64,000 bases of DNA, taken from NCBI GenBank assembly GCA_000091205.1, contig AP006502.2. One strand, given 5' to 3'. This stretch comes from Cyanidioschyzon merolae. Its lineage: Eukaryota. Under the pieces are notes generated by a model. It was given only the letters and a program-made list of their open reading frames with translations, was not told the DNA's origin and made no database searches. Position numbers and translations under genes: made by a program. Every line of letters starts with the position of its first letter. Positions within the stretch are counted from its first letter, which is position 1. Below are positions 1,529 through 61,400 of the stretch, one piece after another.

Positions 1529-3805
1529 ATGGAATGTTTTGGCATCGGAACAAAATCCATTTCTGCGCCAGAACAATTTTTCACTTGCACGCGAGACCAC
1601 CCAGAGCCGGAACTTGGGGCAAAGAGCGCTATGGCGTCTTCTGAAAGCTTCTCGGGCAAGGAATATACAATTGCTTCGAATGACCACACAACTGACCCGG
1701 TTCGGCGTGTGCTCCACTTTCATAGCGAAGCGAGTAAGGGCCTCAAGAACCGGGAAGAGGGCTCGTCAACCAAGCCGTCTCCGGCAAAGACGTTGCAGTT
1801 GTCTGAGAGCTGCGAACAAGACGCCCTTGCTTGCGCCTCAGAGGTGCGTATCCGAACGGTTCGCTCGTCACCAGAGTCTGGGTCACCAGGTGTCGCCGCT
1901 TCGACGGTGCTCGCACGTGACCCCGCTGTCGTGCTGGGTGCCGGCCCAGCGGGCTGCCTCATCGCACTCGAACTCAGTCGTCTTGGTATTCCCGTAGAAG
2001 TTTTTGAATATCGCTCCGCGCATTATTTTAGACCCTATATAGAGTACGCTGGAGGTGGCGGTGATCGGGCTCCTTACCAGCGATATCGCGGACGATCGAT
2101 CAATCTGGCACTTTCGGCGCGAGGTTTGCGTGCACTGGAAACCGTCGGACTCGCACAGCGCATCCAGCAAATAGGTGTGCCTATGCGGGGGCGCATGATC
2201 CACGATACAGCAGGACGCGTACACTTTCAGGCCTACGGTGGTCGTCCCGAGGAGTACTTGCTCTCGGTATCGCGCACCACGCTGAATCAGATGCTCGTGG
2301 AGACCTGTCTGCTCGATGAGCGCGGCCTGATTACGATGCATTTTGGAAAGAAATGTACCGACATTGATCTCGACCAGTGCGTCTTGACATTCGAGGATGG
2401 ATGGATGTCACCGAGGCACCACGGTTGGCCAGAATCAAATACTGAGGACACGGTTGATTCGCCACCGAGTAGCCGCAGCCTCGAGCGAGAACGAAGAGCG
2501 CGAAAGCGCGCAGCACCCGCGCGCGGCTTCCTGGGCACCAAAGAGAGAACGCCGCGTACGCCGCAGCACGACGCTACGCACAGAGAGCCTGGTGCCGAGG
2601 CCGTCCCCGGGTCGCTGATGTCGTCAACCGGACGCTCGACGTCAGCCGGAGCGGTCTCGACGCGTCATGTCACTGCAAGTTTTATCATAGGTGCGGATGG
2701 TGCACATTCGCGGGTGCGCCAAGCCATGCAACGACTTGTGCCTTTCAATTACGAGCAGGAGTACATCCCAACGGCGTACAAGGAGCTCTCGATTCCGTCA
2801 CGCATACAGCGAGATGACACCGGGGGCTCTTCGGGCGGTTACTTGTTGGCACCGCACGCGTTGCATATCTGGCCTCGACATCGCTTTATGTTGATTGCAC
2901 TGCCAAACCGAGACGGCTCCTTCACTGCTACGTTATTTATGAACAGAGATGCGGATCCAGGAGCGCCAGACGTGCCTTCGTTTGCAACCGTTCGAACGCC
3001 TTCGCAAATCCAGCAATTTTTCGAGTCCTATTTTCCGGATATTTACGCGCTTGTGCCATCGCTGGTCGCAGATTACCAGAGTAACCCGGTTGCTCCGCTC
3101 TTTACGATTCGCTGTGCACCATTTCATTACCGCGGCAGGGCGGTTCTCGTCGGAGATGCAGCACACGTGATGGTGCCGTTCTATGGTCAAGGTTGCAATG
3201 CCGCCATGGAGGATTGCCGGATTCTGGCAAATTTCTTCCGTGAAGAGATACGCCTCGCTGCGCTTCGAGCACCAAACAGACGCGTGCGGGGATGCGTGCG
3301 GCTCCCTGCCTCGGACTTGACGGTTGACTTCGAGGATGGCATTGCAGAGGACGACTTGACAGATGCGAAAGGCCTGCAGCGTGCTCTAGCCGATGATGGA
3401 TATCTGGGCGGTGTCGTAGATTCGGAATCCGAGGGCGCGGCACTTTTGGACCTGGAGCGGGTGTTCTCTGCCTATAGCGCTGAACGGAAACCGAATGCTG
3501 ACGCGATCACCAACTTGGCGCTCGAAAATTACTGGGAAATGGCCAGTAAGACCTCGTCGCGTCTTTTCCGCTGGAAACGTGAGATCCAAAACCAACTTCA
3601 CGCGCTCATGCCTTGTTATTTCATGAGCCTTTATCACATGATCTCATTCAGCAACATTCCCTATGCAGAAAGCGTTCGCAGAGCTCAGAAGCAGGATCGT
3701 GTCATGAACGCGCTCTTCCGCTCATTAGGCTTGGGCTGTGTCAGCTTTGCTGGATTCATGCTGTGGCGCGCTTGTCACTTGCTACGCAAAGCACAGAGAA
3801 ATTGA
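1529..3805 (+). CDS. Kynurenine 3-monooxygenase (FAD-dependent); the ORF carries a ~125 aa N-terminal extension and a low-complexity internal insertion, so the true start is probably an internal Met
   Basis: FAD/Rossmann motif 'VVLGAGPAGCLIALELSRLGIPVEVFEYR'; KMO signature 'RAVLVGDAAHVMVPFYGQGCNAAMEDCRILANFF'; single uninterrupted 758 aa ORF. Confidence 0.8.
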   Translation: MECFGIGTKSISAPEQFFTCTRDHPEPELGAKSAMASSESFSGKEYTIASNDHTTDPVRRVLHFHSEASKGLKNREEGSSTKPSPAKTLQLSESCEQDALACASEVRIRTVRSSPESGSPGVAASTVLARDPAVVLGAGPAGCLIALELSRLGIPVEVFEYRSAHYFRPYIEYAGGGGDRAPYQRYRGRSINLALSARGLRALETVGLAQRIQQIGVPMRGRMIHDTAGRVHFQAYGGRPEEYLLSVSRTTLNQMLVETCLLDERGLITMHFGKKCTDIDLDQCVLTFEDGWMSPRHHGWPESNTEDTVDSPPSSRSLERERRARKRAAPARGFLGTKERTPRTPQHDATHREPGAEAVPGSLMSSTGRSTSAGAVSTRHVTASFIIGADGAHSRVRQAMQRLVPFNYEQEYIPTAYKELSIPSRIQRDDTGGSSGGYLLAPHALHIWPRHRFMLIALPNRDGSFTATLFMNRDADPGAPDVPSFATVRTPSQIQQFFESYFPDIYALVPSLVADYQSNPVAPLFTIRCAPFHYRGRAVLVGDAAHVMVPFYGQGCNAAMEDCRILANFFREEIRLAALRAPNRRVRGCVRLPASDLTVDFEDGIAEDDLTDAKGLQRALADDGYLGGVVDSESEGAALLDLERVFSAYSAERKPNADAITNLALENYWEMASKTSSRLFRWKREIQNQLHALMPCYFMSLYHMISFSNIPYAESVRRAQKQDRVMNALFRSLGLGCVSFAGFMLWRACHLLRKAQRN

Positions 3806-10270: not shown

Positions 10271-10549
10271 TGCCCAGGTATCTTGCCTCGACTGTCAAAC
10301 AAACGCGTGACTGCCCACGTGGTGATTCGTCAAAAGCCGCACGCAGTTATCCAGTCGGGACGTTCACAGCCAAGAACGTTTTCGTAACGGTGATGAAGCA
10401 GGCGCGAATCCGTGACGCCACCGCGCACAAGTCGTCGCAGCAGCTGTGCATCGATCGGTGAACGCTGCGCTGCGGCCGCTGCTGTCGAGTAGGCGCTGCT
10501 GGGGGGCTGCAGTGATGTCCGATGAACATGGAAAAATGAATTTTGCGTT

Positions 10550-11326
10550 CTGTCCCTGTCATGCGAATGTTATTTCCGAGGTATTCTAGGTGTACAGCAT
10601 CGACATTGTCTGTGTACCAAGTGGAGCACACGGATTCGTGTGTAGGTCCAGGATTCGCGGTGGTCTTTTTCTCGGAATACGCCTTCGACGCTTTGCCGTC
10701 GGCGTTCGCGACGTCATCGGAATCGAGATGATTCGCGACGCTCTCCGAGAACACTTCAAGAAAGTAACCCGGATCATTATGCAGGGCATGCGTACGGGCC
10801 CCGGCGATTCTCCGTTGCGTACATGGAGCATGCCCAAACCGCGCATGCTCCAAGATACCGATCTCTGTTTCAGGACAGCTTGTGGGCGCAGCAGTGCTTG
10901 CCGCAGGACTGACGCGGAATAAATCGGGGTATCGTCCCGTGACGCCTTTTTCGCAAGCACATACCAAGCGTTCACTGAAAATCACTTGTGAACTGTTCGT
11001 AGACTCCGTTCGAAGCACACATCCTCGATTCCGTGTGGGCATCCACGACGCGCCATTTGACACCAGCGTGATGCCTCGTGCCTTGAACAGTACTCACCCT
11101 GACAACGGGCGAAATCGGGACTGGAAAGCCACCATCACCATCCTTTGACTGCCGAGCACGAAGCCGGCGAGAAAAGAAAAACCGGCGTGCTACGAGCTGG
11201 AGATAGTCGGGCGGAAACGGCATCGGTGTCGGAAGAGCGCGCAACGGCTTGTGTTGATGCGCATTGGCAGAGACTCGAACGCAAGCGCATACGCCTATGT
11301 TGCTACGCCTGTTCCATTTTATACTG
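10550..11326 (+). repeat. Dispersed repeat, copy F: 3'-truncated 5' portion of the family-2 TnpB-like element; direct repeat partner of 21379-22159
   Basis: ~780 bp ~98% identical to 21379-22159; homologous at nt and translated level to 60285-61026 ('AHTKRSLKITCELFVDSVRS' vs 'THAETSLNFSCEIIDSVRAT'); both copies end at the same 'ttttatactgac'. Confidence 0.8.
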
Positions 11327-14591: not shown

Positions 14592-15841
14592 TGGCGGTAC
14601 ACCCTTTCACGTTTCCGTTATCGCTCTTAGCAGGGACAGCAACTCCACGCAGAAGCTGCGAAGCAAGCAAGTACCCGCTGTAGCTCAAGGCGGACGCCAG
14701 CGCTCGACGCGTGCCTCGGGATCTTCGCACGCGCGCCTGCGCTGCCGTTGGGCAGCCGCAGGTCGCTTATGATCGATGGTTTTTTTCGATGACAAAACGT
14801 TTCCATGGACTGCGGAAAACAGATTGCGGGTAGGTAATGGCAATCGAAGAAGCGTCCATCATGGTGCTACGCCCTATCTAAAAGTTCTATTACTTATAAT
14901 TCCCTTCGGATGAAATGGTCGTTTCGTGCGTTCTCTCTTTCGCCGAGTGCCTACCGCGAGCACCCGCCGTCGCGCGTATACCGCTGGTGCGCATGCCCCA
15001 CCGAGACAGAACCGCCTTTCTATGCTACTGAGGGCGTCCGCTCGAAGGATGATTCACCTGACACAGAATCAGGGCTCATTATCATTCTGGGAGCCTGCAA
15101 GCTGCGAGGCAGATATGCCGCTTGGGGCAGAGCGAAGCGATACACTAGGAGTCTACCGCGATCAGGACGACGCCCAGACACAGCATCCCGCTCCTAGTCT
15201 CCGAATATACTGCGCGTTGACGAGTTGCTCAGGTCTCGCTAAAGCACCAGCTACTGCAGAGTCGCATGAAGCACGAGTCGGGGAGACTCGTCCGGCTCGC
15301 GGGACCACCTGCCAATAAGATAAACTTTCGATAATATGGAAACCATTTCCCCTTTTAACGGTTATCGTTGAGGGCTGCGCAATTTTCATCATGTTGCTCG
15401 TTAGTGGTTCGTCTATGTTCTTTTGTCTGCAGCGCAGTCCATACGCGCACACCCGTATCTTGTAGGCATCAGACAAGACGCGTATCAGGCGGTTGAAAGG
15501 AAACGCGATCCTGACCATGAGCTTGTAGCTCTATGGTAAAAGACGTATTAGGGTTGAAGACGTAGCAAAGTATAGTGTTTTATCCCAATTGTGCTCCAAC
15601 ACTCAAGATAGTGTATTCATGTGATTTTTCACGGTTTATAGCAGAAGCGTTCGAAGTACGTTCTTTTTCTAAAAATAAAAATAAAGTTGTGGAAATAGAA
15701 GTGGAAGATCCTGGAGAGCTGGTATCCCCGGTTGCCGGAAACAGACGAATAACATTGCGGAGCAAAGAGGAATCGGGGAAGACGAAGAAGCAAAAAGGGG
15801 AGGCCCGACGCCGAAAGCTGCAAGAAAGACGATAATGCGAC

Positions 15842-17551
15842 GTGATGGTGGTGAAAGCCTGTCTTCTTAAACATATCAAGGATCCTTACAGGGAAAAGTT
15901 GCGAGACGCTATCAGAAACCGTATCGACTCGTACTCCAAGAGCATCGTCAAGGCGTCGTCAGGTCTGATGCATTTGGCGAGGGGGATGTATCGCGACGTG
16001 AAGCACATGGAAACAGTCGAGATTCCGGACGAGTTTTTCGATAAGACCTTTAGTCGTCAGCTGATGTTTGGCACAGGGGAAGCTCCGAGGGAAAATGAGC
16101 GAATGCATGCCCTCCACGAGAAACATCCCTTTTACAGGTTCGAGGGTAATCGAAACAAGGGGGACTGGGGTATTTACGACAATGGGGCGATGAAGTACCT
16201 CACGAATCTGAAAAACCATTTGACAGTGAACCTCGAACGTTTCATGATACGCGCCGTGTTTGCGCTCCACCCGGGCATCTCTCGCAATGGAAAATGGGCG
16301 ATTATCAGTGGCATCATGAAAGATCGCAAGCATGAAGACGAGATCGAATTTGTCGGAGAAAAGGCGTCAAACGAGAGCACGAGTGAGGATTCCGTCATCC
16401 GCGCGGTTATACAAGAGCATCGTGCAGTCTCGGGGCTGACGAACCCAGCAGAAAATGTATTAGATTTGAAAAAAGATAAGGAAAGATACTATCGCCTCGT
16501 CCTGCGCTATTTCGTGTTTTTGGACCGTGAACTCGAATGCAAGGCAGAGATGAAGCTGAATGGGACAAAAAATGAAGATTCGGGGAGACGGAAGGCTGCG
16601 CTTCTGGGTAAGCGCTTCAACGTCGTTCCGTTATGCAACATCAAGTCACATTTTGACACCATCGACTCCAGAATCGCTCACGGCAGCATAAAGGAGATCA
16701 GTCCGGAGTTCGATGTAAGGAGGACAGAGTTCACTGGTGGAAACCGGGAGACGTACTGGAAGAACATCTTCAATTTCAAACGGCTCAAAGTCAGCAAACA
16801 AAAGGTATTCACTGGGATGATCGAAAACAATGGGGTAGCCATGTGTGTCCACTATCGGCGGTCGAAGGTGGATCGCCCAATCGTGCCTTTCGCTTCGCCC
16901 TCTGCGAAGCATGAAGAAAGCAAAGAGGCGGATCCTGTGATGCAGGAGGTGCAGGATAACGACTCTGTCGTTGGCGCGGACCCGGGGAACACGAACATCG
17001 TAACCATCGCAGTACCCAAGCACGGGGTATATGGTAACGACGGCAATTTACGTCAGAAAGACATGCGTCTTTTGAGAATCTCGAGAGCGAGATGCTACCG
17101 AGAATCCGGTATAATGAATGTGAGGAAGAAAATTTCTGCATGGGATGCAGGAATGAAGGATCACCTGGAAGCCACGAGCGCGGTGACGAGCCGAGAAGCA
17201 GACTTTAAAGCTTTTCGGAAATTCGTGGAAGTTCGTGTTGCGCATTGGGATGCCCTGTGGGAGGAGTATACCGAGCCCAGATGGGCTCGTTTGCGTATGA
17301 ATCTATACTGTGGAAAGCAGCGGGCGTTCGCGAATTTTTTCAATGAGTTGAGCGCCTTGAAGGAGGATGAAAATCAGAGGCTAGTAGTAGCATACGGAGC
17401 AGGGCGATGGACGACCCAAAAAGGGTGTACACCAGCTCCAACGACGAGGGTGTACAAGGAGTGCGCACGGCGTTTCGTTACGAACCCGGTAGATGAGTTT
17501 CGAACATCGTATACACACCATGAACTGTGGTGTACACTTCAGAGGGTCTAG
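15842..17551 (+). CDS. Fanzor/TnpB-like RuvC nuclease, main ORF (569 aa). The same frame extends upstream to 15575 (K/R-rich NLS-like N-terminus, interrupted by one TAA at 15833-15835) and downstream through an in-frame TAG into a second exon
   Basis: RuvC-I '[16 protein letters not shown]'; Fanzor-type RuvC-II region '[51 protein letters not shown]'; downstream exon gives 'VEFVNRDLNAAINV' (RuvC-III). Upstream 'KTKKQKGEARRRKLQERR' is NLS-like. Confidence 0.75.
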
Positions 17552-17653
17552 ATGGAAAAGTGTCCGGGGAGCCCCGAGGATATAGCAAAGTACGGACCGC
17601 TGACAGACGAGCAAATGGAAAGGATAACGAAAGTGCGCAGGCTACTTGCATTA

Positions 17654-17682
17654 GTGAGTAAACTCCTAACGGCACGAAACAG
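17654..17682 (+). other. Putative 29-nt spliceosomal intron (GTGAGT...CTAAC...CAG) inside the Fanzor-like gene; its removal joins '...KVRRLLAL' to 'VEFVNRDLNAAINVRRCAVLENRPPD*' (exon 2 = 17683-17761)
   Basis: Canonical GT-AG ends, CTAAC branch-point-like motif, 29 nt length restores frame exactly into the canonical TnpB RuvC-III motif; identical sequence in copy 2 (reverse strand ~35400-35430). Confidence 0.5.
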
Positions 17683-18020
17683 GTGGAGTTTGTGAACCGA
17701 GACTTGAACGCCGCTATCAATGTAAGGAGATGTGCGGTACTGGAGAATAGACCTCCAGACTAAACAAGAGGGAACTTTGATGGACAATTCTGAAAGTTTT
17801 ACTATATGAGAAAAAGTTGGAAGCAGTTGTGGGTGGCCGGTCGAACAAGTCTGGCAGGCGTCTGCACATCAGTTGGAGACGTTTCGTTTAGGGTGTGTCG
17901 TTCGCCACTACTGTACACTGCCGGCAGCATCGTTCGACTTTAGATAGGCGTTTGGTGTTGGCTGCGTCTTAGACCTATAACGAGGCAGACCGATACGAAG
18001 CTCGGTGAAAGGAGCCGTTT

Positions 18021-21378: not shown

Positions 21379-22159
21379 CGCTTTGTCCCTGTCATGCGAA
21401 TGTTATTTCCGAGGTATTCTAGGTGTACAGCATCGAAATTGTCTGTGTACCAAGTGGAGCACACGGATTCATGTGTAGGTCCAGGATTCGCGGTGGTCTT
21501 TTTCTCGGAATACGCCTTCGACGCTTTGCCGTCGGCGTTCGCGACGTCATCGGAATCGAGATGATTCGCGACGCTCTCCGAGAACACTTCAAGAAAGTAA
21601 CCCGTATCATTATGCAGGGCATGCGTACGGGCCCCGGCGATTCTCCGTTGCGTACATGGAGCATGCCCAAACCGCGCATGCTCCAAGATACCGATCTCTG
21701 TTTCAGGACAGCTTGTGGGCGCAGCAGTGCTTGCCGCAGGACTGACGCGGAATAAATCGGGGTATCGTCCCGTGACGCCTTTTTCGCAAGCACATACCAA
21801 GCGTTCACTGAAAATCACTTGTGAACTGTTCGTAGACTCCGTTCGAAGCACACATCCTCGATTCCGTGTGGGCATCCACGACGCGCCATTTGACACCAGC
21901 GTGATGCCTCGTGCCTTGAACAGTACTCACCCTGACAACGGGCGAAATCGGGACTGGAAAGCCACCATCACCATCTTTTGACTGCCGAGCACGAAGCCGG
22001 CGAGAAAAGAAAAACCGGCGTGCTACGAGCTGGAGATAGTCGGGCGGAAACGGCATCGGTGTCGGAAGAGCGCGCAACGGCTTGTGTTGATGCGCATTGG
22101 CAGAGACTCGAACGCTAGCGCATACGCCTATGTTGCTACGCCTGTTCCATTTTATACTG
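21379..22159 (+). repeat. Dispersed repeat, copy G: second ~780 bp 3'-truncated family-2 fragment, direct repeat of 10550-11326
   Basis: ~98% identity over the full length to 10550-11326; ends at the same 'ttttatactgac'. Confidence 0.8.
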
Positions 22160-25829: not shown

Positions 25830-28800
25830 GGTGCTTTGCGGACGTCACCGTTCGCAAGGGTTTCAAAAGTCGGCGTCGCTGGCCAGCACCCAGGAACACC
25901 GCAGTCAAACGCGCCACCGGATGCTCCAGTTGATATTCAGAGAGCGCGCCCTGAGTACTCTGTGGTCGTAAGCGTCGATTCTGCAGCGCAGCACGCCACC
26001 CCAACGTGTACAACGTGTGTGAAGCGACTTCACGTTGCAGTACAACGGAGCGCCTGCAAGAGCACAGGTTCAAGTAGGCAACGCAGTGCAGCTGCCGACT
26101 TGCCGCAACGCAATGCAGCGCGACGTGCCGAGTCTGACGGCGTTACAGCCAGCGTGTTGCTGCTCAAGCGGTCCTCGATGCACTGCCTGCTGGAATACCT
26201 TTCCATGCAGGTCCTTCTTGTTTTTCGTTTGGTTTTCTCGCAGGTACTCACTGAAAGGAATTTATTGGGTTGCTTGGGGAAAAGTTGCGTAAAGACTTGA
26301 TCCTGTAAATACTAGCTTGCGAAGACGCAGACTCATTTGCACAAGTCAGCAATTCTGCGGGCAGCACGTGGATGACGCACCCTGTTCGTCGACGTTATCC
26401 TGAACGCCGCGCACTCAAAACATAACCTGTGGAACTCTATGTACACGGCCATCTCCTCGTCCATACATGCTACTCGAGACGTTTTCTACCGAATAATACT
26501 AGAGAAACCACAGGTACTGAAGTGTCCACAACATTGAAACGAACGATGACGAAGGGACACCGATGGAGAACGGAAACAGGTGCGCTTCTGCTGGAGATCG
26601 TCGTGCGTTGAGCAACAAACGATCGATGTCGCACTGAAACGCGATCGCTCAGTCCAACACGAACGAGTTTTCGACTCAGTCTACGAGACCTCGTTGGGAG
26701 AAACGCCAGACCGATACATGCGGTACTCCAAACGGGCTAATCATCTGACCGAATCGGAGAGACAAGCGAGCGTCTCGAAAATGTCATTCCGAGCGGCGAT
26801 TCAATCGACAGGTCACCTGTGAAGCGACAAGCGATCTTTTCTGTTCAGCAATGCGTCCATCATCGAGGCGGCCCGGTGGCTTCTCCGCCGCGCATTCCTC
26901 TGTCTCGCTCGTACACATCGTCGCTTTCCATCATTCACAGGCGGTGAACGAGTACGCAGCTCCGATTCGCGTTGAACCGGTCGTCGTGTTAACCTATTCT
27001 CTCAGGTTCACTTGACTCGAATGCATCGTGTCTACTGTAGCAACGCCATTTTGACGCTCGCGAATCATTGGATGAGTCACTCGCATCCGTGGCACCGTTC
27101 TTCGACAAGTGGTTCGATACCTTCACCAGTCTTGGACTGGTATATTGCCGGCCTGCTCGTGGGCCGGAAGGAGCGAAAAGATGCACTCCGGTCCATGGCC
27201 GTGCACGCAACGGAACAGGTGACGAAAAACTGCATGTGAGGAAGTTGAGATACATGCACGAAAAAGGCGAGTTTCGGTGCTACTGCCCAACCTGCGCATC
27301 TGAATCCCGAGTGAAAACGGATATTGGATAGATTCAGCACATCCATGCAAACCGGCTGCGCAAAGGAACAGATGAAGAAGGTGGCGGTAACTACGAGCAA
27401 GTATGATAAAGCCTTTGCACAATTTTGTGTGCAGCATTCGCTTAGCTCGTTCAAGGGTTCTCGTTTAAAGTGAGAATATGGAAATAAGTTGGCGTGGATG
27501 ATGGAGACCGAGGGGATATCCATCCGCACGCACTCTGTTCGACCGAAGCCAATGTCGAGGAACGAGACCCCTCGTCCATCGTTCAAGCTTGAGGAAGAGA
27601 ATGACGCTTTCGTGAGCGTGCTTCTCGGATTTCAGGAAATAATCGCCGCCACCCCACCTCTGTATGAAGACAACGGAGCCAGAAACCAGAATGGAAACCA
27701 CATGAAGCTGCTCAAACATTGACGGGACTCGTTATGATCGGGGATCGGTCACGATGACCCCCAAGAGGCATGCCCGCAGTAGAGTGAGCGTGCCAAGACG
27801 CATGCCGACGCCCTCAGTACAGCACCGGGCAGCGGCAGATGCCTTGCGCCCTGCATTCAGAGAGAGCACACACACGAGCGCTCAAACGAAGCATGCGGAC
27901 GACGTATGCTGGGCGATCATGAGACCGCTCGGGATTCGTCAACGATGTCGATTTTACGGATGCAGGAAGCAGGTATTCGCCAAATTTTCGAATGTGTCGG
28001 AGACGGCAATGACGAACAAGTTGGATCGTTTCGTGGCAGCCTATGGCGCTGGACGCAGTGTGACGCCCAGAGCAGCACTCCTGTATCTTCGACGAGCGCG
28101 TACACCGAGTGCTGGAATCGATGGTATACGATTCCTGTCGATGCGCTCCCTAACGACATACACGCATCACAGCGACGGATGCACACACGGAAACAGACGG
28201 ATAAGAAGAGACGGAAATCGACATGGACACACGAAACGCTGGGCGGTAAACTCTGACCGAACATCAAATGGCGAAGCACTCGAAAACGAGGCGCTCGCGA
28301 TGGTGTAACACGACCAGCAACCCGACGTGCAAGCATGTTCTGCGTACCCCGAGACCTGAGCGCCCCGCTCAACGCCTGCAAAAGTATCGTACGTACGGAG
28401 CGCTCAGCAGGTTTGTTTCAAGCGATACTTCGAAGGCATCGCACAGTGCATCGTGCGGGCATTGTGCTAGAACGCCGATGACTTGCGATGGAACGAGTCA
28501 GTGGCCAGAAGCGAGAGCATCGGATTCTTGCCTTGAGCAAAGCACGCGCATGGTACGGTTCAGGTATCCGTGAGAAAGGCCAAAACGCGCGGCATATACG
28601 TCTACATGGATCGGGAACGATTTTCCCGGTCAATAGTTGAACCATGATATTGTTCCGGTATACGACACCAGCGAGTCTATGAAGCTTAGAATCTATGGAT
28701 GTACGACGGAGCAAGCATGCATATCCGAAGACGCGCCCAGGTTACCATCGAGAGCAACTCGGCCGAGTGCCAAGTCAACCGAATACGTCTGCTGCAACAC

Positions 28801-35140: not shown

Positions 35141-37679
35141 AGAGTCGAACGCTGCTGCCGGCAGTGTACAGTAGTGGCGAGAAGCCCGCCCTAGACACAA
35201 AGTCACCGAGTGACGTGCAGGCGCCTGCCAGACTTTTTCGACCGGCCACCCACAACTGCTTCCAACTTTTTCTCATATAGTAAAACTTTCAGAATTGTCC
35301 ATCAAAGTTCCCTCTTGTTTAGTCTGGAGGTCTATTCTCCAGTACCGCACATCTCCTTACATTGATAGCGGCGTTCAAGTCTCGGTTCACAAACTCCACC
35401 TGTTTCGTGCCGTTAGGAGTTTACTCACTAATGCGAGTAGCCCACGCACTTTCGCTAGCCTTTCCATGTGCTCGTCTGTCAGCGGTCCGTACTTTGCTAT
35501 ATCCTCGGGGCTCCCCGGACACTTTTCCATCTAGACCCTCTGAAGTGTACACCGCAGTTCATGGTGTGTATACGATGTTCGAAACTCATCTACCGGGTTC
35601 GTAACGAAACGCCGTGCGCACTCCTTGTACACCCTCGTCGTTGGAGCTGGTGTACACCCTTTTTGGGTCTTCCATCGCCCTGCTCGGTATGCTACTACTA
35701 GCCTCTGATTTTCATCCTCCTTCAAGGCGCTCAACTCATTGAAAAAATTCGCGAACGCCCGCTGCTTTCCACAGTATAGATTCATACGCAAACGAGCCCA
35801 TCTGGGCATTGTATACTCCTCCCACAGCGCATCCCAATGCGCAACACGAACTTCCATGAATTTCCGAAAAGCTTTAAAGTCTGCTTCTCGGCTCGTCACC
35901 TCGCTCGTGGCTTCCAGGTGATCCTTCATTCCTGCATCCCATGCAGAAATTTTCTTCCATGCATTCATTATACCGGATTCTCGGTAGTATCTCGCTCTCG
36001 AGATTCTCAAAAGACGCATGTCTTTTTTGACGTACGTTGCCGTCAGTCCCATCTTCGGCACGCTTCGGTGCTGCAATGGTGATGATATTCGTATTCCCCG
36101 GGTCCGCGCCAACGACAAAGTTGTTATCATGCACTTTTTGGGTCGCAGGACCCGCCTTCTTCTTTTCTTCATCCTTCGTCCCGCCAACCATAAAGGCGTT
36201 ATCCTGCACCTCCTGCATCACAGGATCCGCCTTCTTCTCATCTTCATCCTCCGTCACGCCAACGACAAGGTCGTTATCCTCCGCCTCCTGCGTCGCAGGA
36301 CCAGCCTCCTCCTTTTCTTCATCCTCCGTCACGGGCGCAGCCGAGGGCGGAACTGGACGATCTTTCTTCAACCGCCGGTAGTGTACACACAAGGCTACCC
36401 CATCGGTTTCGATCATCCCAGTGAATACCTTTTGCTAGCTCACTTTGAGTCGTTTGAAATCGAAGATATTCTTCCAGTACGTCTCCCTATTCTCACCGGT
36501 GAACTCTCTTCTCCTTACATCGAACTCTGAACTGATCTCCTTCATGATGCCATGAAGGACGCCGGAGTCGATAGTCCCAACATGTGACTTGATGTTTCAT
36601 AATGGATCGACGTTGAAGCGCTTCCCCATTAGGACAGCCTTCCGTCTCTCCGACTCCTCATTTTTTCCTCACGCAGCTTCACCTCTGCCTTGCATTCGAG
36701 TTCACGGTCCAAAAACACGAAATAGCGCAGGATGAGGCGATAGAATCTTTCCTTATCTTTTTCAACTCGGATATCTTGTCTGTTGGATTGACCAGCCCCA
36801 AGATCGCACGGTGCTCTTGTATAGCCGCACGGGTCACAGAAGCTTCATTCCTGCTCCTGCGTGACGTCTTCTTGTAGACGAATCTGAGTTCCTGTTTATG
36901 ATGGCGATCTTTTGGGACGCCATCGATAATGGCCCATATCGCCCTGCGAGACAGGCCAGCCTAGAGTGCAAAGACGGAGCGTATCATGAAACGATCGAGC
37001 TTCATGGTCATATGGTTCTTCAAGTTCGTGATGTACTTCATCGCCCCGTAGGTTTAAATATTCGAGTCACCCCTGTGTCGAGCACCGTCAAAGCAGGATT
37101 TGGCGTAATTTTAGTGGAGTGCATGTGCTCGCTCATCTCTCCTCAACGTATACCCTGTGCTAGCCATCGGGTCACGATTAAAAGTCTTGTCGGAATGTTC
37201 GTATGGAACCTCGACTTCTATGATGCCCGTCGTGTCGCGATACATCTTCCTGGCCATATGCATCATTCCTCAAACAGCCTTTTGCAATACTCATTTAGTA
37301 ACACGCGACTCGGTTTTTGATGGCCTCTTGCAACTTTTCCTTGTATGCATCCTTGATATGGCGTGGAAGATAGGCTTTCGTTACCATTTTGTCGTACTGT
37401 CGTCTTTCTTGCAGCATTCGACGTGGGGCCTCCCCCTTTCGGTCCTTCTTCTTCTTTTCCTGGTCTTCTGGACTCGGCACTGATTTCTGTTTTTTTTTCT
37501 GGCAGCCGGCGACCCTGGCCCTACAGGATCGTCGACCTGCTTTTTCATAACTTTCCTTTTTTTAGTTGTTTTGAAAAAGAACGCTCTTTGAACCCTTCTG
37601 TTGTATACTGCGAAAAAGCGCTTTACTAGACTTGTTTGAGGTGTGAAACGCAATCGAACTGAAAGACTGTACTTTGCTA
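35141..37679 (-). mobile_element. Fanzor1-like element copy 2, inverted relative to copy 1 (~2.54 kb); degraded: frameshifts plus an internal ~90 bp tandem triplication upstream of RuvC-I
   Basis: Reverse-complement similarity (~94-97%) to 15563-17941, including 3' tail, 29-nt intron and TAG; ORFs 35531-36187 and 35874-36416 (-) carry the Fanzor sequence in different frames; repeated '[18 protein letters not shown] / [20 protein letters not shown] / [21 protein letters not shown]' units. Confidence 0.75.
35531..37480 (-). pseudogene. Fanzor/TnpB-like nuclease pseudogene (copy 2)
   Basis: N-terminal 'KKKKDRKGEAPRRMLQERRQYDKMVTKAYLPRHIKDAYKEKLQEAIKNR' (CAA where copy 1 has TAA), RuvC-I '[16 protein letters not shown]', C-terminal '...[20 protein letters not shown]'; reading frame broken at least twice. 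Confidence 0.7.
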
Positions 37680-38359
37680 TGACTCCAACGGAAATCCAAC
37701 TTCTACAGCTGAACAACACACTACTGATCAAGATCACGGTTCCCTTCAACGGCGGCATGTGCGTCGTGTCTCATGCCTGCCTGATATCCCAGGTGCGCTC
37801 ACTGACCGCGATGCATGCACCGCGCGAGACGCTAGACCCATCGATGAAGGACACGTGTCCGACACCCCGCATTGGCACATGCGTGCTCTCACCGGCGCTC
37901 TGCGGCACACGCGGCAGCGGGTAGTTTCAGAAAAAAGAGAAAGCGGACACTCCTCCGCGGATGATCTGAGCTTACAGACTTTCAGTTCTATTTCGTTTCG
38001 CCCCCGCTGCAGTGTATGTTAAGACGTCGAAATAACTGTGCAACTTACCGTATATATCGTTGGCAAATTGTCTGCAGGATATATTCATTACTGAACAGCT
38101 CATGGAGGACTGCGTTCATCCTTGAGGTCAGTCGCACAATAATACGCAGATGGTTGATGAACACTGCAAGTAACAAATATATGCGCACCGCACCAAAAAC
38201 TGGTATTCTCAGCGCATGCTTGCCGTCAATGGTAGAAAACGATCCGCTGATAACCTTACGGAAACTTAGTGCAACGAAAGTGGTCACAACGGGCGTCTCT
38301 GTTTCCCAACACCTTGTCCATACTGTCCTGAAAACACCGGGATACAGGCGCAAAAGAAG

Positions 38360-39480
38360 ACTCTATTCATTCACGGCCATCCTCTGCCAAAATCGCAATG
38401 ACAGCATTCCGAGGACTGAGCGATCGGTATGAGGCACAGGGTCGTCGGGTTTGCTATTCCATTCGTTGAGACTTTCTTCGGACGAAACGGTCCGAGTATA
38501 TATGGGTATTCGCGGAGCGGGGCCCCCATCGTAAATAGGATCGAAATCGAAGAGAACGAGGACATCTTCATCAGTCTTAGCTGTAGTGGATTCATTTGAC
38601 GGCCTCAGTTTCGCTCCTGCGGAAGGCACATACAACAGAACCCTCTTCGCCGGATCATTGAAGACTTTTCTCAGACGTCTGGTGAGGTCCTTCGATTCCA
38701 CAACGTTGCATTTCACCATTACCCTTGCATTCGAGTTTTACCGAATCTTTCGGGATAGAGCTGCTTTCTATTCCCCCGTGCGCTCCTTGATTCAACCCCA
38801 TCGAGGCCGCGTTTTGTATCGTGAAACGTCATGGTCGCTCCACTGGGCAGATCTCCGACGAGTTCGCCGTACCGTGACACACCGGGGGCGCATTTCGTCT
38901 TTCTTCCACACGTCCTTCTCTGTCCAAGAAAATTCTCACCGTAGTGCATCATGAAGTGTGTTCGTTTTGAAGAAATACAATATCCAAGAGATGAGCTGGG
39001 GTGTACACTCCAGAACGTCGAGATGGAGAGAGGCCAGGGAAGCGCTTCGGCGATAGAAGAGCACGAAGAGCTGGCAGAGCAGCAAACGGCACAGAGAGAA
39101 CGTGTTCGAGGAATCTTTGCATTCATGCGTTCAACGAGAGGTAATAAACGCATGGAGTCCGTGAACCAAGACTTCAACGCCGTCATCCATATCAAACGAT
39201 GCGTGGTGCGGATGACGAGATGCGCGGACCTGACACGATCCATCTTTATGGGCCAGCCTCTCAGGCTCAACGTGTACAAAGAGAAATTGAAATCGATAGC
39301 AGGGGTCCGGTCGTTAAAGACTGGGAGGCATCTGCGCGTCGTTATTCATTTACCCTCCATAATTGTGAAACATTTTGTCTTTCACCGACTCTACAGAAGA
39401 CGGCAATGGACTTGGGCTTGTGTCCCCGAAACGATCGATTGCAGTGAAGCATGTGGCTCCGCTTTGCACCAAGGCGACAT
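38360..39480 (+). mobile_element. Family-2 TnpB-like element fragment (copy C), degenerate
   Basis: + strand encodes '...GNKRMESVNQDFNAVIHI' (degenerate RuvC-III, ~39161-39193); 5' part homologous to 44270-44810 (rc) and to the 780 bp repeat; no intact ORF. Confidence 0.45.
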
Positions 39481-40196
39481 AGACTGATAGAAATATCTGG
39501 ATGAGTTCCCAATCTTTGGTTTTTTCGGGTTCTTATTGCATCATGGACGACATCGCGCACCGCAAATCCTCGATTCACTGGAAAAGTGAGCGCTTGCGTG
39601 TGCAGCTGACAACGCACTCGCATACGGGATTGTACAGAAGAAGCGCGCCATAGCACGGTGCGACACCGGCGAAGTAGATTGCATCTATCCCTCTGGACCC
39701 TTCAACGGCATACACCAAGCTATAAAGCAAGCGTTTTCGTGCTTCAGGGCGACACCGGTATTACGCAATGTGGTAGACGCATAGGCATATCTCACGAGAG
39801 TCAGGTGTCACGGTTGCGAGGCGCTCAGCGAGGCTGTGTACCTAGAACTTGAAACAGTCCTGCGAAGCGTAGGTCGCAACTCTCGCATCTGCATGGAATG
39901 CACCAACGACTGACAGAAGCGGCGAAATCGGGACCTGAACGCTTCTATCCATTTCCTTTCGACAACGAACAACGGAACTGGAGGCAAGGAATACCCCAAT
40001 ACATTTAAAAACGTAGATGAAACAGTGGAAAAAGAGACCAGTTGAAGAAAAAGCTCCCAATGACTGGTATTGATGATCGTAGGAAAACCCGTAAACACTG
40101 GAGTGTATGCCGCAGTCAGCAAAACGGACCCTTTCCAGGGTCGTCTGACATGACAGCATCTGGAGAATCCACGAATACGCAGCTGCAGCAGAGGCA

Positions 40197-43486: not shown

Positions 43487-44810
43487 GTCCGTTTTGGTGC
43501 ATATCGTTTCGTTCAGGTGCGTACCGGGACCGGCCGCCTGCTATCGGTGTCGGTTCGTTGATCTGCGCTTATTTCGCGCATTAGAGGCCTGTCCCACGAA
43601 GGCTGGATCGTGTCAGCGACTTGGGTCTCGTCTCCAGCACACCGCATATCGTGTGATATGGATGGCGGCGTTAAAGTCTCGGTTCACGAGATCCTTGCGC
43701 GCATTGATTCTGGTGGAACGCGCCAATGCTAGCATTGGTCGAACTCGTGCCCACAGTGCCACTTCAGTCTCGTCATCGCTCCGTCAGAGGCAGACACCCT
43801 TTCTGGTCAACTTCTCCTTTTTCTTCGTCTTCTTCTTCATCACTTGCTCTGCGTCGCTCAACAGTCGGCGAGAAGAGGATTTTTTCGATTTTCTTCGGCG
43901 GTTGGTGGTGACGGCTCTCCAGGATCCTCGACCTGCGTACCAATATCATTCAGTTGGAATTTTCGTTTCTTCAAATGAATGCACTTGTTTATGCCCCTAG
44001 GCGAGGTCCTTCCCGTATCGAAAAGCACTTGCTGAAGGAAGACGAAATGTGCCCCATCATGTGACAATGTGGAGGACGCTTCAGCGATTCGCCGAATAGA
44101 GCGATCCTTACTTTTCACGATAGAAAGCACTCCTTCGATTGTGCTGAATCACCGAAATGTACGGAGGAATGGGAAGCAGCTCTGGCCCTATAGAATCGGG
44201 AAACGCTAGAACGCAAGTGGAATGGTGAAATACCACAATATCCAACAGAAAGACGTCTTCAGACCTCAGAGGAAAGTCTTCAACGAATTGACAAAGAGGT
44301 TGGTGATGTTGTACGCGCCTTCTCTACGTGCGCAACTGAGGCTGCCAAGTGAATCCACTGCACCCAGAACAGACGATGATGTCCGAATTCTCTCCGAGTC
44401 CGATCGTACATACAACGCGTTCCTTCTCCGCGAAGATTCATAGACCCTCTGATCGTCTCGTCCGAGGCAATTCTCATCCATCTTAGAAACAAACAGACGT
44501 CCCTGCGTTCCATACCTATCGCAACGTTGCAGGAACGCTTTAGGTGCAATATCGGTGCAAGATGGCCGTGCTTGAAACTGGACTTTTTGCGACTGTATCC
44601 CAGAGGTTTCAGGACCATACGAACAAGCAGTTGAGAAACAGAGGCACCTGTGGTGGCTTCTATCGTCGCTTTTTGCTTTCCATAAGTTTATGGACAGGTC
44701 GACTTCTACCATCGACCGCAAGCACGCTTCGAGTGCAAATACTTCACTCTTTCAGTGTTCCTGAACCATCTGGGTCCTGTAGTATGACTAACATGGGTGA
44801 GTAATGGAGT
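43270..44810 (-). mobile_element. Family-2 TnpB-like element fragment (copy D), inverted relative to copy C
   Basis: Reverse strand at ~43680 encodes a RuvC-III-like motif (the + strand reads 'AALKSRFTRSLRAL', the mirror of '..NAAINV..' regions); the 44222-44810 part is homologous to 38363-38954 and to 260-560. Confidence 0.45.
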
Positions 44811-49429: not shown

Positions 49430-50095
49430 GTGCCCAACACCGCAGGAGAACTCGAAACGCCGCCCGCATCCAATCGATTTGGGGAAAGCGCCGGCCAATA
49501 TAAAAGACTGCATAATTCAAGAAAAAGCATCCAATCGATTCGGGGAGCAACGACGGCCAATGTAAAAGACTGCATAATTCAAGAAAAAGCATCCAATCGA
49601 TTCGGGGAGCAACGCCGGGCAATATAAAAGACTGCATAATTCAAGAAAAAGCATCCAATCGATTCGGGGAGCAACGACGGCCAATGTAAAAGACTGCATA
49701 ATTCAAGAAAAAGCATCCAATCGATTCGGGGAGCAACGCCGGCCAATATAAAAGACTGCATAATAAAAGACTGCATAATAAAAGACTGCATAATTCAAGA
49801 AAAAGCATCCAATCGATTCGGGGTGCAACGCCGGGCAATGTAAAAGACTGCATAATTCAAGAAAAAGCATCCAATCGATTCGGGGTGCAACGCCGGGCAA
49901 TGTAAAAGACTGCATAATTCAAGAAAAAGCATCCAATCGATTCGGGGTGCAACGACGGCCAATGTAAAAGACTGCATAATAAAAGACTGCATAATTCAAG
50001 AAAAAGCATCCAATCGATTCGGGGTGCAACGCCGGGCAATGTAAAAGACTGCATAATTCAAGAAAAAGCATCCAATCGATTCGGGGTGCAACGCG
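49430..50095. repeat. Minisatellite: ~10-11 tandem copies of a ~62 bp unit ('gcataattcaagaaaaagcatccaatcgattcggggagcaacgacggccaatgtaaaagact') with 16 bp sub-repeat expansions ('ataaaagactgcataa')
   Basis: Directly visible periodicity; the ORF track shows phase-shifting repeated pseudo-ORFs (62 is not a multiple of 3). Confidence 0.9.
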
Positions 50096-50195
50096 CACGG
50101 GCACCTCATACACAGATCCGCCGCCAGCGATTGATGCCGAGGCGCGTCTTCCGATCCTAGTCAACAGGCTTCCAGGGCTACGCGCTCTGCTACGA

Positions 50196-51395
50196 GTGCT
50201 TTCTCCCTGGGCGGAGCAGAGGTCTTTGTGTGAGCCATTCACGGGAGTAATGGCCCCTGTCCCCCGACCTGGACCGCTGTCGCCGAGTTCTCGGGGGAAG
50301 ACGAACGCTGCGGGTGAGGAGTGCTCACTGAGTGGCAGCTGCGGACCCGAAGCCTGCACACGTCGGCGAGACGATCGCGTTGCAAAACCGGGACTCTCCG
50401 TTTCTTGTCGCTGGTCTGTTTCCACTAGTCCTGGATCAGCGAGCAAAGTCATAGAGGTGGTCGGAGACCGCGCTCAGGCCACCGTGTTGACGAAAGAGTC
50501 TCGAAGCGTACTCGGAGGCAGCCCGAGTAGTGGACGGCTCTTGCCGTGCCTCGGCTCCGGCAACGGGGTGCCAGGCCAGAGCACGGCGCTGCCGAAAGGC
50601 GCTCCTGCTCGTGGCGCTGGGCGCGAACACCTGGAGCAATCTTTCCTTGACTTTGGGCAGCGGAACGGTGCGGGACCGGTGACTTGCCCCGAGTGCGGAT
50701 GTACATATGTGGTAGGTGTTGCCGCAGACGAACGCGCGCATACCAGCGAACATCAACTGTTCCTTTATGGGGTTCCAGTGACGCACCCTCGCTTCCTCGA
50801 CGCTGCGGTCGATTTGGGCAAAGCCCCTGAGCAGCAGTGGCCCGCGTTTGAGCGCATCCCGGGATGGATTGTGCACGTCAGTACGAGCAGAGGCAGAGCA
50901 AGCGCTGCGCAACACCAAAACAGATCAGGAAATATCCTGCACGTCCAACAGCCATGGTTTAAGACGCTCTGGAGATTGGCCTGTAAGGATTGGAGTGCTC
51001 ATGCGGAAGCATCGGAGCCTACGATACCTTTTGGTACGGAGCTTTCAGAAGCGGTTCCACCAATCTGGATCTTTGTCTATATTGGCAGACAGCGCCGCAA
51101 TGCCATCGGACTTGTCGTCGCGCGTGCCCTGACGCTACGGGAGCCATTAGACCATGTGCGGCAGGAGGCACCCTGGTGTGGACTCGAGCGTGTCTGGGTC
51201 CACACTGCATATCGTCGATGCGGGGTGGCAACCGCTCTCGCGGACACAGCACGAGCACATGTCTGGGCTGCAACAGTGGTTCCGCGCCATCGCTGCGCGT
51301 TCACGGAACTGACTACCGCCGGTGATGCATTTGCAGCTGGGTACGTCGGTGGTCGGGATCGAATTCGGTTGTACAAACCTACAAAGCACATATAG
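50196..51395 (+). CDS. Eco1/ESCO-like cohesin N-acetyltransferase (zinc finger plus GNAT)
   Basis: 'CPECGCTYVVGVAADERAHTSEH' resembles the Eco1 C2H2 zinc finger; C-terminal 'IGLVVARALTLRE...RVWVHTAYRRCGVATALADTA' is a GNAT acetyl-CoA binding region. Confidence 0.55.
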   Translation: MLSPWAEQRSLCEPFTGVMAPVPRPGPLSPSSRGKTNAAGEECSLSGSCGPEACTRRRDDRVAKPGLSVSCRWSVSTSPGSASKVIEVVGDRAQATVLTKESRSVLGGSPSSGRLLPCLGSGNGVPGQSTALPKGAPARGAGREHLEQSFLDFGQRNGAGPVTCPECGCTYVVGVAADERAHTSEHQLFLYGVPVTHPRFLDAAVDLGKAPEQQWPAFERIPGWIVHVSTSRGRASAAQHQNRSGNILHVQQPWFKTLWRLACKDWSAHAEASEPTIPFGTELSEAVPPIWIFVYIGRQRRNAIGLVVARALTLREPLDHVRQEAPWCGLERVWVHTAYRRCGVATALADTARAHVWAATVVPRHRCAFTELTTAGDAFAAGYVGGRDRIRLYKPTKHI

Positions 51396-60284: not shown

Positions 60285-61400
60285 CAGCCTCGACATTCCA
60301 AGTGCGACAATGAGTGATTACGGATTCATGCACAATTTTAGGATGCATGGTCTTTTTTTTCTGAGGTGACTCGTTCGATGCTTTGCCGTCCGAGTTTTTA
60401 CCATCACCGGAATCGAGGTGATTCGCAGCGCCAGCGATCGGTGATTCGTTAAATAACCGATACCATCACCGGGCTCATACGTACACGCCCTCATGCTCCT
60501 CGTTTCCTTGCGTGCAGTGTGCTCAAATCAAGCATTTTTCTAGATTTCGATCTTTCAGTTTTAAGGCAGCTCGTGGGTTCAGCAACTGATGTCGCCTCAT
60601 GAACGTTGAACAAACCTGACGTCATCCCTTGACGAGTTCCGCACGGACTCATGCCGAAACTTCGCTGAACTTTTCATGTGAAATAATCGATTCCGTTCGA
60701 GCGACAAGTCCTCCTCTCTTGTGGAAATCTATGAAACGGCATTCAGCGCAAGCATGGAACCCTTCACGGGATATGCTCCCAGGGGTGACCGTCTCTTCTA
60801 TTTGCGAGGCAATGGTTTCGAACTCTGACTTTAATCATCACGGAGATCGCTCGCAAAGGAGAACGCGTCATCGGTTCGCTGGAAAGAAGCGCTCACGGAT
60901 CGGAATATCTCGACTTGATCTTCAGCATGGATTTTGCTTCCGGTACTTGCTCCATCATCGACAATATCGCGTTCCACAAATCGTCTATCGAATAGAACAG
61001 TGTGCGCTTGCGTGTGCAGTGGACAGCGCACTCTCTGAGAAGATCATTCCGAAAAGCCCGCGATCACAGGATGCAGAATCGGGCGCGGAAACGAAGGAGA
61101 GCATACAGGAAAGCCTCCCGTACCCGTCAATAGCATGTACTGAGCGATGAACGACGCGTTCTCGAAGAATAGCGCAGCGCTCCAACGAGGAACTGTGGTG
61201 GACATGTACGAACACCTGACCACTACAAAGTATCACCGCGGCGAGGGACGCATTTGGGCTGTATCCAGAGAAGACCAACCTGGCGAGCGAAGTTTACACC
61301 ACAATGCCTGCCTGTGCATAAAATGCGGTGACAACAGCCGAATGCAGCGAAATCTGGACTTGAACGCAGCCATTAACGTCGTTTGACCGCTGACAATGAA
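60285..61400 (+). mobile_element. Family-2 TnpB-like element (copy A), the most complete copy (~1.1 kb): 5' region, body, and C-terminal zinc finger plus RuvC-III; one frameshift
   Basis: 61147-61386 encodes '...HHNACLCIKCGDNSRMQRNLDLNAAINVV*' (CxxC plus 'RDxNAAxNI'); upstream 'TVVDMYEHLTTTKYH' aligns with family-1 '[12 protein letters not shown]'; 60285-61026 is homologous to the 780 bp repeats. Confidence 0.55.

Follow-up and report, generated by a model that had tools for sequence, protein, structure and literature searches.

A decayed Fanzor1 element, very probably a copy of CMe-1A, on chromosome 20 of Cyanidioschyzon merolae

The 64,000-nucleotide stretch of Cyanidioschyzon merolae 10D chromosome 20 analysed here (contig AP006502.2, hereafter the window) carries, at positions 14780 to ~17957 on the plus strand, an element that is very probably one decayed copy of the already described transposon CMe-1A, with a Fanzor1 gene as its sole gene. 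A first-pass annotation, made from the letters of the window, had read 15563-17941 as a Fanzor1-like element with an intron-containing gene and a conserved 3′ tail, and had suggested that the locus may be undescribed. The family-level call was correct, as profile matches to the Fanzor1 proteins PpFz1, SpuFz1 and GtFz1 and the fold of P0001, a near-intact relative, indicate. By its sequence, the gene itself (copy 1) is a pseudogene rather than an intact open reading frame (ORF) and, as encoded, is incapable of RNA-guided cleavage; its most likely "function" is none.

Assignment to the Fanzor1 family

That the sequence is a member of the Fanzor1 family follows from profile homology, the P0001 fold and the conserved catalytic columns. 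Queried singly, neither the ORF nor a conceptual protein with its lesions repaired matched anything in Pfam, NCBIfam or the PDB sequences, and family profiles alone succeeded. PF26935 (DUF8286), which is precomputed for many of the relatives, is a weak match that was not recovered in our own Pfam scans and was rejected. A search of a large protein collection gave 71 relatives, all of them in assemblies of metagenomes or raw reads (jgi, ena, lgn) and mostly fragments; no NCBI C. merolae protein was among the Fanzor-relative matches. A profile of 8 sequences matched the Parasitella parasitica Fanzor1 (PpFz1) with E 5e-9, the DPG and NRD regions being aligned. A 49-sequence profile, built by adding more diverse full-length relatives, matched PpFz1 (1.4e-18), SpuFz1 (2.3e-13) and GtFz1 (4.8e-5). 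When 1.84 billion cluster representatives were screened with a profile, 3348 relatives passed E <= 0.001, showing that the clade is large.

The fold was examined on P0001, which among the near-intact relatives is closest to the window copy (67% identity over the best BLASTP segment), rather than on the broken window copy. An AlphaFold (AF2) model built on just 10 aligned sequences was too poor to use, with a predicted local distance difference test score (pLDDT) of 39, and was redone with the 49-sequence alignment, giving a pLDDT of 80.5 and a predicted template modelling score (pTM) of 0.77. Seven PDB chains matched this model at E <= 0.001, and every one belongs to a Fanzor1 protein (E 1e-16 to 1e-14), in line with a Fanzor1 fold and its REC/WED/RuvC arrangement. 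The target-normalised TM-score to SpuFz is 0.72, and Cas12 and Fanzor2 structures are behind by more than 10 orders of magnitude.

The family shares profile homology and, through the P0001 model, the fold with the solved Fanzor1 proteins SpuFz1 (8gkh), PpFz1 (9cf0) and GtFz1 (9cer). It also shares with them the DPG of RuvC-I, a Gly at the canonical RuvC-II position together with a shifted Glu in D-E-[FY]-x-T-S, the N-R-D of RuvC-III, a K/R-rich N-terminus and an RPP motif near the C-terminus. The differences are a sequence identity of merely 12-15% in structural alignments to P0001, a degenerate zinc finger in place of CxxC...CxxC, a variable acidic repeat array before RuvC-I, and the status of activity and omegaRNA, which are only predicted for this clade. 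Fanzor2 proteins (e.g., ApmFz2, 9b0l) have the superfamily and the rearranged catalytic site in common with this family; however, the structural match to them is far weaker (E 3e-2 over 280 columns vs. 1e-16 over ~760 for Fanzor1). Fanzor2 proteins are smaller and are associated with IS607-type elements (PMC3627910).

Bacterial TnpB of the IS200/IS605 elements (e.g., ISDra2) has the RuvC nuclease core in common with this family. A guide RNA specified by the 3′ end of the gene together with the element's right end would follow the logic of TnpB, and the element likewise lacks terminal inverted repeats (TIRs) and, at the family level, has a subterminal 3′ hairpin a few nt from its end. In contrast, the RuvC-II glutamate is canonical in typical TnpB and shifted in the C. 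merolae family, whose element is eukaryotic and nuclear, carries no TnpA or other transposase and encodes a much larger protein (~730 aa).

Catalytic motifs and protein features

The long reading frame with the peptides quoted in the first-pass annotation was found where that annotation had placed it, as the plus-strand ORF 15842-17551 (569 aa). The RuvC-I, RuvC-II and RuvC-III assignments also hold, since the conserved columns of an alignment of the relatives (alignment A5) match the published Fanzor signatures. At RuvC-I, GADPG is encoded at 16973-16987, with the DPG at 16979-16987 and the Asp codon at 16979-16981; it aligns to DPG in PpFz1 and DP in SpuFz1, and its columns are conserved in 48/49 (D), 45/49 (P) and 47/49 (G) rows. 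DPG at RuvC-I is a Fanzor signature (Yoon et al. 2023). A further known feature of these proteins is that the canonical RuvC-II Glu is replaced and an alternative Glu is shifted C-terminally, beside the zinc finger (Yoon et al. 2023; Jiang et al. 2023). In this family, the canonical position is an invariant Gly in AYG(A/S)(G/A), which reads AYGAGRW in the window copy, and the shifted Glu lies ~33 residues downstream of the canonical site in DEFRTS, where it is present in all 46 ungapped rows. In copy 1, this Glu is encoded at 17495-17497 within VDEFRTS, aligned to IDEFRTS in PpFz1 and LDEYKTS in SpuFz1. The RuvC-III aspartate is encoded at 17701-17703 within NRDLNAAINV (17695-17724), aligned to NRDQAAVLN in PpFz1 and NRDM in SpuFz1, with D and N each in 46/46 rows. 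In the relatives, this Asp is in frame with the rest of the protein, whereas in the window copy it is encoded in another frame, after a stop, because of a 1-nt deletion near 17660.

The degenerate zinc finger noted at first pass is a clade-wide property according to the column counts. In place of CxxC...CxxC, the wider clade has HH...(W)C, and the Cyanidioschyzon lineage has HH/AL with the Cys gone (LLALVS). A zinc finger is common in Fanzors, yet it is not among their defining signatures (Yoon et al. 2023). The N-terminal stretch is indeed K/R-rich and reads RKKQKTVPSPEEKEEKKKQKGEALRRRRQERR in the family consensus, a putative nuclear localisation signal (NLS) by composition, which is broken by a stop in copy 1. 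Just upstream of the RuvC-I DPG, the family has a 75-nt tandem repeat encoding an acidic 25-aa unit, which is present once in copy 1 (~16905-16979), three times in a second copy in the window (copy 2; 36107-36333) and four times in P0001. In the AlphaFold model of P0001, this array (residues 380-470) is disordered.

Inactivating lesions in copy 1

The lesions were read against a majority consensus of 41 full-length copies, which gives an ORF of ~734 aa (MKKQVDDPGG...WRRFV*, where the asterisk marks a stop). Copy 1 is 78% identical to this proxy consensus in protein (residues 4-665) and 85% identical in DNA. Its decayed coding region spans 15689-17890 on the plus strand, the consensus ATG corresponding to a GTG at 15689-15691 and the consensus stop to the TAG at 17888-17890. 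The first-pass annotation had started the gene at 15575, which is merely the first GTG after a stop, and had described one continuous frame from there to 17761 once an intron was removed. This frame is interrupted by a TAA at 15833-15835, a TAG at 17549-17551 and a frame change near 17660. The TAA falls in the K/R-rich N-terminal region, where copy 1 reads QERR*CDVM, copy 2 QERRQYDKM and the consensus QERRLYDEM. The TAG, which is common to copy 2, replaces a consensus GAG (Glu), so that LQRV*MEKC stands where the relatives have LQRVEMEKC.

The proposed 29-nt intron (GTGAGT...CTAAC...CAG, 17654-17682) proved to be coding sequence. Every intact or near-intact relative codes through it as ALVSTTNDGKKRMEFVNRD; in the comparison with the consensus, the relatives are ungapped and copy 1 has a 1-nt deletion near 17660, a frameshift common to copy 2. 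Removal of 29 nt restores the frame because it happens to offset this deletion. The stop at 17761-17763 (TAA), which had been taken as the end of the gene, is likewise premature, as the consensus ORF continues to the TAG at 17888-17890; it is followed by a second 1-nt deletion at ~17787. Both lesions are common to copy 2, and the local sequence is RPPD*TRGNF vs. RPPEWTRENFVGQPLKVELYEKKLEAVVGG... in the consensus. What had been described as a complete architecture after intron removal is thus a coding region that has lost its start codon and acquired three premature stops and two frameshifts.

Such decay prevails among the related loci, 79 of 82 of which contain stops or frameshifts. In the other three, one frame stays open along the whole Fanzor1 match; L001 and L004 represent the same element (P0001), and L002 is a more distant relative, P0062. 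P0001, from a hot-spring Cyanidioschyzon relative, has an open Fanzor1 frame of 752 codons with all catalytic residues, and in L001 and L004 the consensus ATG is out of frame through an indel in an A-run.

Limits of the element and probable identity with CMe-1A

The element fills an unannotated intergenic gap between two annotated genes, CMT178C (BAM83172, 13665-14591) upstream and a manganese transporter (BAM83173, 18021-19781) downstream. Its left edge is sharp, homology with related metagenome loci beginning at 14779-14792, which places the start at 14780, ~800 bp upstream of the 15563 given at first pass. On the right, homology to 53 distinct related tails (59 extracted) reaches ~17955-17960, and conservation falls at ~17958-17962. 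The previously assigned end at 17941 is not the terminus; copy 2 is merely truncated at the position matching 17939. The element is therefore ~3.18 kb rather than 2.4 kb long.

From left to right, the plus-strand element consists of a TE-N2_CMe-like 5′ module (14780-15423), a leader between this module and the consensus start codon (15424-15688), the decayed coding region, and a truly non-coding 3′ end of ~67 nt (17891-17957) with a subterminal hairpin remnant (~17930-17953). No gene other than Fanzor1 is present, and neither TnpA nor a further transposase is encoded. A solo copy of the 5′ module lies at 903-1554 on the minus strand, with 70.5% identity between 14780-15423 and 1554-903 over 658 nt; this solo copy ends just within the start of a 758-aa ORF with an FAD-binding domain (1529-3805).

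The related subfamilies are all alignable from ~15424-15464, and the 5′ junction alignment revealed at least four recurrent, mutually unrelated 5′ modules that merge with the common core there. The alternative modules sit at positions matching ~15340-15464 of the window, and many blastn high-scoring segment pairs to related loci begin at 15464-15492. The 5′ end of this Fanzor family is thus modular, and CMe-1A is only its TE-N2-bearing variant. An inverted-repeat search found no TIRs joining the two element ends, and the flanks of 12 5′ ends showed neither a common motif, i.e., a transposon-adjacent motif (TAM), nor a target-site duplication (TSD). A Helitron-like end (CTRR) is not supported, as the element end reads ...GGCGTTTG.

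One Fanzor1 family was listed in C. merolae by Bao & Jurka (2013, Mob DNA 4:12, PMC3627910). Its carrier CMe-1A was reported to have ~150 copies, each ~80% identical to a ~3-kb consensus, without TIRs and with TSDs undetermined, and its 5′ 635 bp correspond to TE-N2_CMe, which has ~70 copies (PMC3627910). Rhodophytes are among the Fanzor hosts (Jiang et al. 2023). The window element comes from the same host genome, is ~3.2 kb long vs. the published ~3 kb, has a single Fanzor1 ORF, and has a 5′ segment of ~640 bp that is likewise found as a separate short element. It has no TIRs and no recognisable TSD either, and belongs to a diverged multi-copy family, at 85% identity to the proxy consensus. 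Nothing substantive differs when the two are compared by the published description. Since the published features all match the measured ones, the locus is already described, the family and its carrier having been catalogued in 2013, and the suggestion of an undescribed locus does not stand.

The second copy and the shared 3′ block

The second copy that the first-pass annotation had reported is present, inverted, on the minus strand at 35143-37786, 17 kb from copy 1. It is more decayed, with many stops and frameshifts, carries a different 5′ module and three of the 75-nt linker repeats, and is cut at its 3′ end inside the hairpin loop. Its homology to copy 1 begins at 15456. The identity of the two copies is ~0.7-0.8 over the 5′ 1.6 kb, rises to 0.97-1.00 at 17057-17845 (copy 2, 36025-35237), and is 0.78-0.86 at 17846-17939. 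Over the 883-nt repeat 17057-17939, the copies have 89 shared-derived differences from the consensus vs. 16 + 16 private ones, whereas in the 5′ part 32 differences are shared and 118 and 150 are private. The lesions common to both copies in the 3′ block are the TAG, both 1-nt deletions and the TAA. From these patterns, the block 17057-17845 is probably the product of ectopic gene conversion or patchwork recombination between copies that were already dead.

The first-pass annotation had also described a ~180-bp non-coding tail (17762-17941) conserved in the second copy. The conservation is real, but it is that of an 883-nt block with lesions rather than of a dedicated non-coding tail. The tail is conserved in copy 2 because the whole 3′ block is near-identical, lesions included, a pattern that points away from selection on an RNA. 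Moreover, since the consensus ORF ends at 17890, most of this tail is decayed coding sequence.

The 3′ tail and the subterminal hairpin

Characterised Fanzor and TnpB systems obtain their guide RNA from the ORF 3′ end together with the element's right end (Jiang et al. 2023; SpuFz-omegaRNA complex 8gkh). The secondary-structure and covariance check proposed at first pass was negative for copy 1. Compared with dinucleotide shuffles, the copy-1 tail (17760-17962) folds no better than expected (z +0.45; opposite strand, z -0.31). The family consensus tail folds at -66 kcal/mol, with a z of only -1.38. RNAalifold on 46 tails gave -0.63 kcal/mol, i.e., essentially no consensus structure, and a structure derived from the consensus has 80.1% of cells paired vs. 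80.2 +/- 0.3 in shuffled alignments, with no covariation excess in shuffle and slide controls. A scan of the entire window with Rfam gave no match. As neutral decay of dead copies would erase RNA signals, these results are a negative for copy 1 and an absence of evidence for the family.

A local feature is present at the right end of the relatives. A subterminal 3′ hairpin of ~10 bp, 3-4 nt from the terminus, occurs in 33 of 46 related copies (z < -2; alignment A3, columns 145-187), and it occurs with two different stems, CGTCGTTCGA/TCGAACGGCG and AACGTTTTTC/GAAAGACGTT. It is destroyed in copy 1 (-2.9 kcal/mol, z +0.9), and the copy 2 element is cut off inside the loop. Candidate roles for this hairpin are the guide-proximal stem of an omegaRNA or a DNA hairpin used in single-strand (HUH-like) transposition.

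Alternative explanations

The possibility that the window holds a live, undescribed RNA-guided nuclease locus, made of an intact, intron-containing Fanzor1 gene and a dedicated non-coding omegaRNA tail, can be given almost no credence. The series GTGAGT...CTAAC...CAG in 17654-17682 does resemble splice signals, its excision brings NRDLNAAINV back into frame, and copy 1 still encodes the complete set of three catalytic residues. However, the relatives code straight across the supposed intron, where copy 1 differs by a 1-nt deletion, and the in-frame stops at 15833 and 17549 persist under any splicing. The start codon is lost, and the stop at 17761 with the frameshift at 17787 truncates the C-terminus. 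In addition, the exact 569-aa ORF is absent from ~15 billion protein sequences, which include 7 other ORFs of the window as exact C. merolae 10D matches, and the family was already described in 2013. This absence, together with the lack of annotation, also argues against expression of the ORF 15842-17551 as a domesticated, nuclease-dead Fanzor-derived protein, e.g., an RNA- or DNA-binding factor retaining REC, WED and RuvC-I/II without RuvC-III, which appears extremely improbable. Such a role would account for an ORF whose length is uncommon in a copy that differs from the consensus by 15% and for a ratio of nonsynonymous to synonymous substitution rates (dN/dS, against the proxy consensus) of ~0.4 over 15842-16897. 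However, dN/dS is ~1.1 over 16980-17546, and the low value may be subfamily divergence that built up while the lineage was still active. Since 1-5 stops per copy are typical of the family, one long surviving ORF is not exceptional, and the stop at 15833 would cut the NLS-like N-terminus off from the product.

It is also highly improbable, in our judgement, that the coding part is dead while the 3′ end (~17600-17957) yields an omegaRNA usable in trans by an intact Fanzor1 encoded elsewhere. This idea draws on the origin of characterised guide RNAs at the ORF 3′ end and right end, on the ability of the consensus tail to fold, and on the recurrence of the subterminal hairpin in two stem variants among the relatives. 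It is opposed by the z-scores of both the copy-1 and the consensus tail, by the RNAalifold energy, by pairing and covariation equal to those of shuffled alignments and by the lack of an Rfam match. The terminal hairpin, moreover, has been lost by mutation in copy 1 and by truncation in copy 2, and no intact partner protein is known in the C. merolae genome.

Several points weigh against the reading of the locus as a dead copy of CMe-1A. The identity with CMe-1A is inferred from the published description, i.e., length, 5′ module, lack of TIRs and host, rather than from a Repbase alignment. The consensus is made mainly of hot-spring metagenome relatives and not of C. merolae copies, so that single lesions, e.g., that of the start codon, rest on a proxy. 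The dN/dS of ~0.4 over the 5′ two-thirds of the ORF means that the inactivation may be relatively recent. Finally, the 64 kb of the genome examined here leave room for an intact master copy, which may exist elsewhere in C. merolae.

Possible mechanism and significance

By analogy with characterised Fanzor1 proteins, the intact family protein would enter the nucleus through its K/R-rich N-terminus and would associate with an omegaRNA whose template comprises the 3′ end of the Fanzor1 ORF and the element's right end. DNA flanking the element would supply the guide, and matching DNA would be cut by the predicted triad of Asp (DPG), shifted Glu (DEFRTS) and Asp (NRD). Cutting presumably helps the element to persist. 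The open frame of P0001 and the ~10-bp hairpin with its two stems raise the question of whether the Fanzor1 family is not entirely dead and has an unusual right end, which we consider unlikely. If P0001 were active, it would be a Fanzor1 of a thermo-acidophilic alga without a canonical zinc finger, and the hairpin would serve either as the guide-proximal omegaRNA stem or as a recognition hairpin for single-strand (HUH-type) transposition. HUH-type transposition would, if real, account for the lack of TIRs and TSDs in the element.

As the relic of a transposon family on record since 2013, with ~150 such copies reported in the genome, the locus matters little. It offers two cautions, namely that motifs resembling canonical splice signals (GTGAGT, CTAAC, CAG) can surround a frameshift purely by chance, and that the conservation of two copies within one genome can stem from gene conversion between dead copies. 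It also offers two leads. One is a Fanzor clade without a canonical zinc finger and with a variable acidic repeat array before RuvC-I, and the other is a structure-preserving right-end hairpin, which could help to define the omegaRNA or the transposition mechanism of Fanzor1 carriers that lack TIRs.

Other Fanzor pieces and repeats in the window

A third, far more diverged Fanzor1-like relic lies at 27450-28400 on the plus strand, where tblastn of the consensus gave 23-30% identity (E 2e-5 to 2e-4, residues 361-616). Within it, the ORF 27754-28308 has RFYGCRKQVFAKFSN...FVAAYGAGRS, matching the corresponding ...VVAYGAGRW region. C-terminal Fanzor fragments are found at 38981-39340 on the plus strand (50% protein identity to consensus residues 608-728) and at 43589-43771 on the minus strand (43% to residues 640-700). 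Counting these fragments, the relic at ~27.5 kb and both main copies, the 64 kb hold at least five Fanzor-derived pieces.

Repeats of other kinds were also observed. A 300-nt direct repeat, unrelated to the Fanzor element, occurs at 10546-10845 and 21379-21678, the two units being 98% identical and 10.8 kb apart. A tandem array of ~62-nt units (8 registered copies) occupies 49439-50133, just upstream of the ORF 50196-51395, in a purine-rich (AT skew 0.31) stretch of lower GC (0.46). A 96-nt direct repeat at 39524-39619 and 60938-61033, with 77% identity between units 21 kb apart, may represent another dispersed repeat family.

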